A stretch of 48,271 nucleotides of DNA from a virus (taxonomy: Duplodnaviria > Heunggongvirae > Uroviricota > Caudoviricetes), in IMG/VR virus record IMGVR_UViG_2558860170_000007. One strand, 5' to 3'. The stretch's first letter is position 1. Every line of letters starts with the position of its first letter. The notes beneath the pieces were generated by a model. That model saw only the letters and a program-made list of their open reading frames with translations. It had not been told where the DNA came from and did not search any database. Positions 40,706-43,714 of this stretch are shown in pieces. The translations under genes were made by a program, and so were the position numbers.

Positions 40706-41144
40706 TTATGTTGCCATGCGAAGTATGCATGGCTGCATGTCTGCCTTCCATTTAAAATGGGCTAAGACCTATAACCCTAAATATTATTCTTTATTATCTT
40801 CTTTACCACTTCGGTGATGCTGCCAACTTACTGATTTAGTGTATGATGGTGTTTTTGAGGTGCTCCAGTGGCTTCTGTTTCTATCAGCTGTCCCTCCTGT
40901 TCAGCTACTGACGGGGTGGTGCGTAACGGCAAAAGCACTGCCGGACATCAGCGCTATCTCTGCTCTCACTGCCGTAAAACATGGCAACTGCAGTTCACTT
41001 ACACCGCTTCTCAACCCGGTACGCACCAGAAAATCATTGATATTGTCAGCGCCAGTGATATAAGACGGTAATTCGCCATTTGGATTGTCCGCTCCACCCA
41101 ACATGTTGTTTCCTTAAGGTTCTCACACCAGAAAGGACATCAAC

Positions 41145-42317
41145 ATGCTGAGCAGAGAGGACTTTTACATGATAAAGCAAATGCGCCAGCAGGGCGCGTA
41201 CATCGTCGATATTGCGACTCAGATTGGTTGCTCTGAACGGACGGTCAGACGCTACCTCAAATACCCTGAACCGCCAGCCAGAAAGACCCGCCACAAAATG
41301 GTTAAGCTGAAACCGTTTATGGATTACATCGACATGCGCCTGGCAGAGAATGTCTGGAATAGCGAGGTTATCTTCGCGGAGATTAAGGCAATGGGTTATA
41401 CGGGCGGACGTTCCATGCTGCGTTACTACATCCAGCCCAAACGTAAAATGCGTCCGTCAAAAAGAACAGTTCGCTTCGAAACTCAGCCTGGATACCAGCT
41501 CCAGCATGACTGGGGCGAAGTTGAGGTGGAGGTTGCCGGGCAACGGTGCAAAGTTAACTTTGCGGTTAATACGCTGGGGTTCTCCCGCAGCTTCCATGTC
41601 TTCGCCGCACCAAAACAGGATGCTGAGCATACCTACGAATCACTGGTTCGCGCCTTCCGCTACTTCGGTGGTTGTGTGAAAACGGTGCTGGTTGATAACC
41701 AGAAGGCTGCGGTGCTGAAGAATAACAACGGGAAAGTCGTGTTCAACTCCGGATTCCTGTTGCTGGCTGACCACTATAACTTCCTGCCACGGGCATGCCG
41801 TCCACGCAGGGCCAGAACAAAAGGTAAGGTTGAGCGGATGGTGAAATACCTCAAGGAGAACTTCTTCGTCCGGTACCGCAGGTTCGACAGCTTCACTCAT
41901 GTCAATCAACAACTGGAGCAATGGATAGCCGATGTGGCTGACAAACGGGAGCTTCGCCAGTTCAAAGAAACGCCGGAACAGCGCTTCGCGCTGGAGCAGG
42001 AACATCTGCAGCCGTTACCGGATACAGACTTCGATACCAGTTACTTCGATATCCGCCATGTGTCCTGGGACAGCTATATCGAGGTTGGTGGTAATCGTTA
42101 CAGCGTTCCCGAAGCGCTGTGTGGTCAGCCGGTATCGATACGAATATCGCTGGATGACGAGTTGCGGATCTACAGTAATGAGAAACTGGTGGCCTCACAT
42201 CGCCTCTGTTCAGCATCGTCTGGCTGGCAGACAGTGCCGGAGCATCACGCCCCGCTCTGGCAGCAGGTCAGTCAGGTGGAACATCGACCACTGAGTGCCT
42301 ATGAGGAGCTGTTGTGA
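41145..42317 (+). CDS. istA: IS21 transposase IstA
   Basis: 390 aa, [38 protein letters not shown]... with HTH and DDE regions. Confidence 0.9.
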
Positions 42318-43114
42318 TGCATGAACTGGAAGTCCTGCTGAGTCGCCTGAAAATGGAGCATCTGAGTTATCACGTTGAAAGCCTGCTGGAACAGGCAGCT
42401 AAAAAAGAGCTGAACTACCGGGAGTTCCTGTGCATGGCGCTACAGCAGGAATGGAACGGCAGGCATCAGCGCGGTATGGAGTCCAGGCTGAAGCAGGCTC
42501 GTCTGCCGTGGGTCAAAACGCTGGAGCAGTTCGACTTTACCTTCCAGCCGGGCATCGACCGTAAGGTTGTCCGGGAACTGGCTGGTCTGGCGTTCGTGGA
42601 GCGCAGCGAAAACGTGATCCTGCTGGGCCCTCCTGGTGTCGGAAAAACTCATCTGGCCATAGCTCTTGGCGTGAAAGCGGTGGATGCGGGACATCGGGTA
42701 CTGTTTATGCCACTGGACAGACTGATCGCGACACTGATGAAAGCGAAACAGGAAAACCGGCTGGAGCGTCAGCTACAGCAACTGAGTTATGCCCGGGTGT
42801 TGATCCTGGATGAAATAGGCTATCTGCCGATGAACAGAGAGGAAGCCAGTCTGTTCTTCCGGCTACTGAACCGTCGATATGAAAAAGCGAGCATCATACT
42901 GACGTCAAACAAAGGGTTCGCAGACTGGGGAGAAATGTTCGGAGATCACGTACTGGCAACAGCGATCCTGGATCGGCTGCTACATCACTCAACCACGCTG
43001 AATATCAAAGGAGAGAGTTACCGGTTAAAAGAGAAACGTAAAGCTGGAGTGCTGACCAAAAACACAACGCCAATCAGTGATGATGAAATGGTGGAAAGCG
43101 GACAGCATCAGTAA
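42314..43114 (+). CDS. istB: IS21 helper ATPase IstB
   Basis: 266 aa with Walker [12 protein letters not shown]; start overlaps the istA stop. Confidence 0.9.
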
Positions 43115-43714
43115 CGAAAGTATTTAGCGGGCATGAAAATGGCAAATAACGGTCAAACATCGTGGCGTTGACAATATGGCCATGAATGGCGTTGGATGCC
43201 GGGCAACTGCACGCATTATGGGCGTTGGCCTCAACACGATTTTACGTCACTTAAAAAACTCAGGCCGCAGTCGGTAACCTCGCGCATACAGCCGGGCAGT
43301 GACGTCATCGTCTGCGCGGAAATGGACGAACAGTGGGGCTATGTCGGGGCTAAATCGCGCCAGCGCTGGCTGTTTTACGCGTATGACAGTCTCCGGAAGA
43401 CGGTTGTTGCGCACGTATTCGGTGAACGCACTATGGCGACGCTGGGGCGTCTTATGAGCCTGCTGTCACCCTTTGACGTGGTGATATGGATGACGGATGG
43501 CTGGCCGCTGTATGAATCCCGCCTGAAGGGAAAGCTGCACGTAATCAGCAAGCGATATACGCAGCGAATTGAGCGGCATAACCTGAATCTGAGGCAGCAC
43601 CTGACACGGCTGGGACGGAAGTCGCTGTCGTTCTCAAAATCGGTGGAGCTGCATGACAAAGTCATCGGGCATTATCTGAACATAAAACACTATCAATAAG
43701 TTGGAGTCATTACC

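Follow-up and report, generated by a model that had tools for sequence, protein, structure and literature searches.

The window, i.e. the whole stretch of 48,271 nucleotides that was analyzed, very probably (at roughly 95%) contains a nested transposon insertion, in which a complete IS21 has transposed into a resident IS1 in the chromosome of Shigella sonnei. The order of events, with IS1 first and IS21 second, we infer from the geometry only. Both elements are well known, and their nesting is an ordinary event of a familiar kind that brings no new biology.

Four copies of IS1 were identified in the window, three of which are 768 bp long and mutually identical, the fourth being interrupted (Table 1). 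Exact matches to the left IS1 end were found at 6175-6197 (minus strand), 35336, 40813 and 48029-48051 (minus strand), and to the right IS1 end at 5430, 36081-36103, 43692-43714 and 47284. The left end of the interrupted copy, from 40813, is GGTGATGCTGCCAACTTACTGAT, and its right end, up to 43714, is the reverse complement of GGTAATGACTCCAACTTATTGAT. When 41044-43177 is deleted, the two remaining pieces (40813-41043 and 43178-43714) make up exactly 768 bp, and 767 out of the 768 positions are the same as in the three intact copies. The sole difference is G658A, giving A137T in InsB'. Each of the three intact copies has the uninterrupted IS1 sequence, CATTGATATGGCC, which is missing from the copy at 40813-43714. 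The two junctions of the latter (marked by slashes) read ...CATTGATAT / TGTCAGCGCC... and ...GGCGTTGACA / ATATGGCC... A repeat finder, run independently, likewise returned this IS1 in two pieces, overlapping by the four bases ATAT. In its restored form the element shares with IS1 of E. coli and Shigella the length of 768 bp, the 23-bp ends (imperfect terminal inverted repeats in the IS1 family), the two reading frames insA and insB' and the frameshift site A6C, while it differs in being interrupted in insA codon 59, in the single missense change given above and in having no 8-9-bp duplication of its own.

Table 1. Coordinates of the nested insertion, its parts and the other IS1 copies in the window, followed by the nests found in other E. 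coli replicons (positions within IS1).
Feature	Position	Strand	Details and basis
Intact IS1	5430-6197	-	exact end matches
Intact IS1	35336-36103	+	exact end matches
Intact IS1	47284-48051	-	exact end matches
Interrupted IS1	40813-43714	+	span 2902 bp
IS1 left segment, nt 1-231	40813-41043	+	same as nt 1-231 of the intact copies
IS1 left inverted repeat	40813-40835	+	exact match to IS1 end
IS1 promoter-like site	40820-40847	+	consensus promoter scan
Chimeric truncated insA ORF, 67 aa	40868-41071	+	InsA 1-58 plus IVSASDIRR from the IS21 left end, then stop
Left ATAT target duplication copy	41040-41043	.	IS1 nt 228-231
Complete IS21, 2130 bp	41044-43173	+	TGTCAG...TTGACA; identical full-length plasmid copies
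IS21 left terminal inverted repeat region	41044-41096	+	gapped end alignment, motif scan
istA, 390 aa, DDE transposase	41145-42317	+	NCBIfam and Pfam profiles
istB, 265 aa, AAA+ helper ATPase	42317-43114	+	NCBIfam and Pfam profiles
IS21 right terminal inverted repeat region	43124-43173	-	gapped end alignment, motif scan
Right ATAT target duplication copy	43174-43177	.	
IS1 right segment, nt 232-768	43178-43714	+	exact end match; comparison with intact copies
insB' frame	43196-43699	+	right IS1 segment
A6C frameshift motif	43253-43259	+	right IS1 segment
IS1 right inverted repeat	43692-43714		exact match to IS1 end
Half of split 9-bp IS1 target duplication in cscK	43715-43723	.	CGCTTGCAG
Nest, TUM9757 chromosome	IS1 nt 217-220		GAAA
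Nest, plasmid pVTB432v-2	IS1 nt 229-232		TATG
Nest, EC1722-1, GCUET01, CFS3313 and 20KM2222 chromosomes (same position)	IS1 nt 447-450		CCGG, read in EC1722-1

The boundaries of the inner element were compared with those of its copies elsewhere. At 11 out of 11 loci with the element (the window and ten others), representing 9 distinct sites, the ends were TGTCAG...TTGACA and were flanked by an exact 4-bp direct repeat. The duplications read were ATAT, GAAA, TATG, CCGG, CGCG, TGAC, CAAC, GCTG, GTAT and GTTA, where ATAT occurs twice (in the window and its orthologue, locus L005), as does GCTG (in two related plasmids). Eight other independent sites thus repeat the ends and the exact 4-bp duplication, which makes the boundaries of the element secure as well as the length of the duplication, and the duplication is a property of the element and no coincidence. 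Neither a target consensus nor an AT preference was found across the 9 IS21 sites (AT content 0.34-0.57). Target duplications in the IS21 family are 4-8 bp long, and those of IS21 itself 4 bp. The related IS5376 of Geobacillus stearothermophilus makes 5-bp duplications (PMC10122671), in contrast to the 4 bp at all 9 sites of the present element.

A sequence-only reading of the window had placed the IS1, the insert and the two flanking ATAT copies at the positions listed in Table 1, and these proved exact to the base, as did its proposal that removal of the insert together with one ATAT restores the IS1. It had suggested an alignment of the two segments to an intact IS1, which was colinear with one mismatch, and had regarded the absence of a direct repeat at the true boundaries as fatal to the idea; ATAT is present on both sides there. 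A chance occurrence of a 4-bp flanking repeat alone would be expected in 1 out of 256 cases, and what decides against chance for the nest as a whole is the colinear restoration of a 768-bp element, with which the agreement of all 11 loci is in line. For the same reason it is scarcely credible that, with no nest involved, an IS21 came by chance to lie between two partial IS1 fragments of independent origin. IS1 and IS21 are indeed often adjacent or truncate each other, e.g. in five E. coli plasmids described below, but the two IS1 pieces in the window are colinear, have the same orientation, sum to 768 bp plus the 4-base overlap and match the intact copies as stated, and the IS21 between them is complete with both of its termini.

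Many plasmids of Shigella sonnei and E. coli carry copies with 100% identity to the insert over positions 1-2130, and the profile scores of the two proteins assign the insert to the IS21 family, as the sequence-only reading had proposed. IstA scored 284 bits against the NCBIfam model transpos_IS21 (cut-off 160) and contains the Pfam domains HTH_23, rve (integrase core) and Mu-transpos_C_2 (Mu-transposase C-terminal-like). IstB scored 302 bits against IS21_help_AAA (NCBIfam, cut-off 200) and 303 bits against IstB_IS21 (Pfam), and has the Walker A motif GPPGVGKT and the Walker B motif LILDE. The stop codon of istA and the ATG of istB overlap (TGATG). The two ends of the element align over approximately 50 nt with two single-base gaps and have a conserved 23-nt inner block in common. 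On the left, the terminal motif is TGTCAGCGCCA at 41044-41054 (nt 1-11) and the inner one TGTCCGCTCCA at 41086-41096 (nt 43-53). The corresponding motifs on the right, read on the minus strand, are TGTCAACGCCA (nt 1-11) and TGCCCGCT (nt 40-47), respectively, the right terminus being TGGCGTTGACA and the final six bases of the plus strand TTGACA. With a related inner motif about 40 nt from the tip at each end, each of the terminal repeats holds more than one copy of a putative transposase-binding motif, of the L1/L2 and R1/R2 type. The published architecture of the family comprises two ORFs, terminal repeats with L1/L2 and R1/R2 motifs, a terminal CA and a short target duplication (PMC10122671), and the inner element matches it in all four respects. 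As both the ends and the two proteins are intact and identical to widespread copies, this IS21 is probably still active.

Within the family, public annotation labels and published ISSaga typing point indirectly to IS21 proper. IS21 is the prototype of the IS21 family and was first described on plasmid R68.45/RP4. Identical copies of the present element are annotated by NCBI as 'IS21-like element IS21 family', and the exact IstA protein, found on at least 1000 contigs, goes by the name of IS21-like element IS21 family transposase. A relative with 86.5% identity is labelled ISEc62 instead, so the NCBI labels do discriminate at that level. Furthermore, IS21 was among the 12 IS types reported from the ISSaga typing of S. 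sonnei 53G (PMC7373316). The likeness to IS21 extends to the length of about 2.13 kb, an IstA of 390 aa and an IstB of 265 aa with overlapping stop and start codons, the TG...CA termini, the repeated terminal motifs and the 4-bp target duplication. A literature search for the terminal sequence TGTCAGCGCC gave unrelated primer matches only.

A mechanism for the insertion can be proposed by analogy with IS5376, which serves as the structural model. In that system, IstA tetramers synapse both terminal repeats, each with two direct repeats, and cleave at the terminal CA, the AAA+ ATPase IstB forms an assembly on the target DNA, which it bends, and recruits IstA, and strand transfer takes place across a short stagger, the repair of which gives the duplication (PMC10122671, PMC11208146). 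Applied to the window, an IS1 would already have been resident in the chromosome before the arrival of IS21. IstA and IstB would then have cut the two strands at ATAT (IS1 nt 228-231, in insA codon 59) with a stagger of 4 bp, the TG...CA ends would have been joined to the target, and gap repair would have duplicated ATAT. The end products of such a reaction, with a 4-bp stagger, were observed at the 9 distinct sites.

Synthesis of the IS1 transposase, InsAB', depends on a -1 frameshift that takes translation from insA into insB'. Native InsA has 91 aa, and the insertion follows codon 58 and cuts within codon 59; ATAT straddles the two codons, covering the AT of codon 58 (GAT) and the AT of codon 59 (ATG). 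The resulting 67-aa chimeric ORF gave a full match to the Pfam domain Zn_ribbon_InsA, while HTH_Tnp_IS1 was matched only at profile positions 1-17 out of 46. Codons 59-91 of insA (the HTH part), the A6C motif and insB' have been displaced 2.1 kb downstream. The IS1-family traits are thereby all present, though split by IS21, with Zn_ribbon_InsA upstream and the HTH, A6C and DDE_Tnp_IS1 downstream. Because the zinc-ribbon part is separated from the HTH, A6C and insB' by 2.1 kb containing stop codons, the interrupted IS1 is predicted to be unable to make InsA or InsAB', i.e. to be non-autonomous. Its two ends being intact, this IS1 might in principle still be mobile, but only with transposase supplied in trans by other IS1 copies. 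The claim of the sequence-only reading that insA is disrupted and the host IS1 probably non-autonomous is thus sound, with 58 out of 91 codons, covering the zinc ribbon and 17 out of 46 HTH positions, left upstream; its remark that a 4-bp duplication fits the IS21 family is likewise borne out by the eight other sites. A hybrid promoter for the HTH-InsB' remainder, combining the terminal TTGACA of IS21 with a -10 box in IS1, was considered and rejected, as no such site was found in a consensus promoter scan, the sole hit of which was the site in the left end of IS1. An Rfam scan of 40300-44300 detected no RNA family.

The surroundings of the nest are less simple. Target duplications of the IS1 family are 8-9 bp long, and no such duplication was found around the interrupted IS1, which is flanked by ...ACCACTTC on the left and CGCTTGCAG... 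on the right. On the left it adjoins a DLP12-like prophage, at the 3' end of the gene for replication protein P, and in E. coli ETEC1731 this flank runs uninterrupted up to the same point. On the right it adjoins the 3' end of cscK, behind which lies an intact cscB. The reverse complement of CGCTTGCAG is situated at 48052-48060, directly after the inverted IS1 at 47284-48051, and in cscK of E. coli CEA224S the two flanks are contiguous, with a single copy of the 9-mer. Accordingly, cscK once received an IS1 insertion with a 9-bp duplication, the two halves of which were then parted by an IS1-mediated inversion, through either recombination or replicative transposition. The missing duplication is explained by rearrangement and is a matter of the history of this copy, not of its identity as an IS1. 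At least one further rearrangement event is implied, since the remaining flanks do not pair. IS1 is the most abundant IS in Shigella, where massive IS1 expansion and rearrangement have been described, and the joint between cscK and the prophage fits this published picture (PMC7373316). The intact IS1 at 35336-36103, for its part, was inserted in a simple manner: it is flanked by an 8-bp duplication (CCAATTTT), and the corresponding site is empty in ETEC1731.

The 67-aa chimeric ORF served as a junction-specific marker. An exact look-up returned six contigs, and every name attached to the ORF was 'hypothetical protein [Shigella sonnei]'. The four places listed for it share the left context, i.e. 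a DLP12-like prophage with porin, quuD, rusA, ybcO and ninE, and the two long loci, L005 and L006, also share cscB as the right context. Identity to the window was 99.94-99.99% for L005 to L008, the matching stretch being 12.2 kb long in L005 and L006, 5.1 kb in L007 and 6.7 kb in L008. Three other S. sonnei assemblies (L005, L006 and L008), among them a complete chromosome of 4.89 Mb, share the junction with the window; the whole nest is present in L005 and L006, while L008 stops inside IS21. Mis-joining of repeats during assembly is accordingly an extremely improbable source of the junctions, also as pieces joined at random would yield neither an exact 4-bp duplication nor an IS1 that can be restored perfectly. 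The one locus that lends itself to such a reading is the draft contig L007, where the first 60 bp of IS21 lie in a garbled IS1, as is typical of short-read repeat collapse; it was examined as a candidate deletion derivative and judged to be the product of assembly, i.e. repeat collapse.

As the chimeric ORF was found only in S. sonnei records, and always at the same locus, the nest probably arose once, in the S. sonnei lineage, and was passed on vertically from there. The rearranged surroundings do raise the question of where it was formed. The lack of an own 8-9-bp duplication, the unrelated flanks and the inverted 9-mer shared with the IS1 at 47284-48051 imply that the host IS1 took part in at least one IS1-mediated rearrangement. 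Together with the intactness of both IS1 ends, they would also suit a nest that arose in another IS1 copy and reached the junction of prophage and cscK later, either through exchange between IS1 copies (by homologous recombination or gene conversion), or as a 2.9-kb IS1::IS21 unit mobilized by InsAB' in trans. We consider such a relocation unlikely, as the junction-specific ORF is known from just one chromosomal context and no copy of the exact junction was found elsewhere, in either 5,426 complete E. coli genomes or 72,556 plasmids. In either case the origin is the same, namely the transposition of an IS21 into an IS1. No published description of this nest was found, although the structure is present in public S. 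sonnei assemblies.

Other arrangements of the two elements were retrieved with the whole nest as query, a search that finds nests at any IS1 position with the same relative orientation. Three other independent IS21-in-IS1 nests, spanning approximately 2902 bp, were found, all of them in E. coli and made up of the same elements in the same relative orientation, each with a 4-bp duplication (Table 1). They differ from the nest in the window in IS1 position and genomic context, and their IS21 is about 99%, and not 100%, identical. Six two-piece junction matches in E. coli were rejected as nests and not counted. Five of these, all on plasmids, show the reverse arrangement, likewise a common one, in which a complete IS1 truncates a left-end fragment of IS21 or an IS21-like element, at nt 122, 297, 341, 386 and 396, and in the sixth an ISEc62-type relative adjoins IS1 nt 1-325.

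Three of the four nests, the one in the window included, lie within 16 bp of IS1 (nt 217-220, 228-231 and 229-232), for which a uniform model gives a probability of about 0.3% in what is a post hoc test on four events, restricted to nests of the same orientation. The stretch at nt 217-232 immediately precedes the part of insA that codes for the HTH and, by the standards of IS1, is moderately rich in AT, ranking among the top 5-8% of 21-nt windows. That it is a preferred landing site of IS21 is a tentative idea and rather doubtful.

Beyond annotation, the significance of the nest is slight. It accounts for three gene fragments labelled 'hypothetical protein' or 'partial IS1 transposase' in public S. 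sonnei records, and marks the IS1 copy at 40813-43714 as presumably non-autonomous. Its unique junction is a lineage marker, known only from S. sonnei, and the connection between the prophage and cscK adds another rearrangement joint to a genome known for IS1-driven decay. The sole point of wider interest is the possible clustering of IS21 at IS1 nt 217-232, seen in three out of four events. If true, it would suggest that IstB and IstA choose their target by local DNA shape, here an A-tract beside TGATAT, and that one insertion sequence is recurrently inactivated by another.

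The 9-bp target duplication CGCTTGCAG is split in the window between 43715-43723 and 48052-48060, its halves inverted relative to each other and each lying beside one of two inverted IS1 copies (40813-43714, the copy interrupted by IS21, and 47284-48051). In E. coli CEA224S this 9-mer is present once, with both flanks joined uninterrupted inside cscK. The split, inverted duplication together with these contiguous flanks therefore indicates that an IS1-mediated inversion or rearrangement truncated cscK and linked the csc locus to the DLP12-like prophage. The other flanks of the two IS1 copies do not pair, and hence more events are required to account for the layout. 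A further IS1-mediated rearrangement joint is suggested by the intact copy at 5430-6197, which likewise has no duplication at its flanks (see table). The IS1 at 35336-36103, on the other hand, is a simple insertion with the lysis genes of the prophage on one side and the porin gene on the other, and the corresponding site is empty in the E. coli ETEC1731 locus.

Another repeat in the window is an inverted one of 285 nt and 74% identity, between 4332-4616 and 31321-31605. The second arm lies inside a segment (31269-32600) whose 95% match in E. coli ETEC1731 is an IS3-family element, and the arms are probably two diverged IS3-family copies.

IS1 and IS21 features in the window and in the compared loci
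Feature	Location	Details
Intact IS1	window 5430-6197, minus strand	flanks ...CCACCCAATT and AGCCTTCTTG...
Intact IS1	window 35336-36103	8-bp duplication CCAATTTT
IS21 insertion cluster (IS1 nt 217-232)	window 41029-41043 and 43178; L001 1717-1720; L002 1733-1736	L001 and L002, other E. coli nests
pLD22-1-135kb (L017)	IS21 nt 341	IS1 junction
W444 unnamed2 (L018)	IS21 nt 386	IS1 junction
pE50-1 (L019)	IS21 nt 297	IS1 junction
ET220 unnamed2 (L020)	IS21 nt 396	IS1 junction
p510016_84 (L022)	IS21 nt 122	IS1 junction

Two S. sonnei draft assemblies differ from the window in this region. In GCA_000281815.1 (L006), single-base indels relative to the window sequence break istA (6278-7449) into ORFs of 177 and 213 aa and cscB (9105-10225) into ORFs of 211 and 142 aa; these could be sequencing errors or genuine frameshifts of that strain. 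In GCA_001261395.1 (L007, 4794-5561), the chimeric insA ORF and the initial 60 bp of IS21 are followed by garbled IS1 and then mutS, most likely through repeat collapse during short-read assembly rather than by a true deletion.

The relationship seen in the window is reversed in five E. coli plasmids, where a complete IS1 directly adjoins and truncates a left-end fragment of IS21 or an IS21-like element. All five breakpoints differ, which implies that insertion or deletion events involving IS1 took place inside istA on no fewer than five separate occasions. As for IS21 entering IS1, three out of four independent insertions, including that in the window, fall inside the same 16 bp of IS1. Under a uniform model the probability of such clustering is about 0.003 (a post hoc test on four events); a local preference in target choice may lie behind it.
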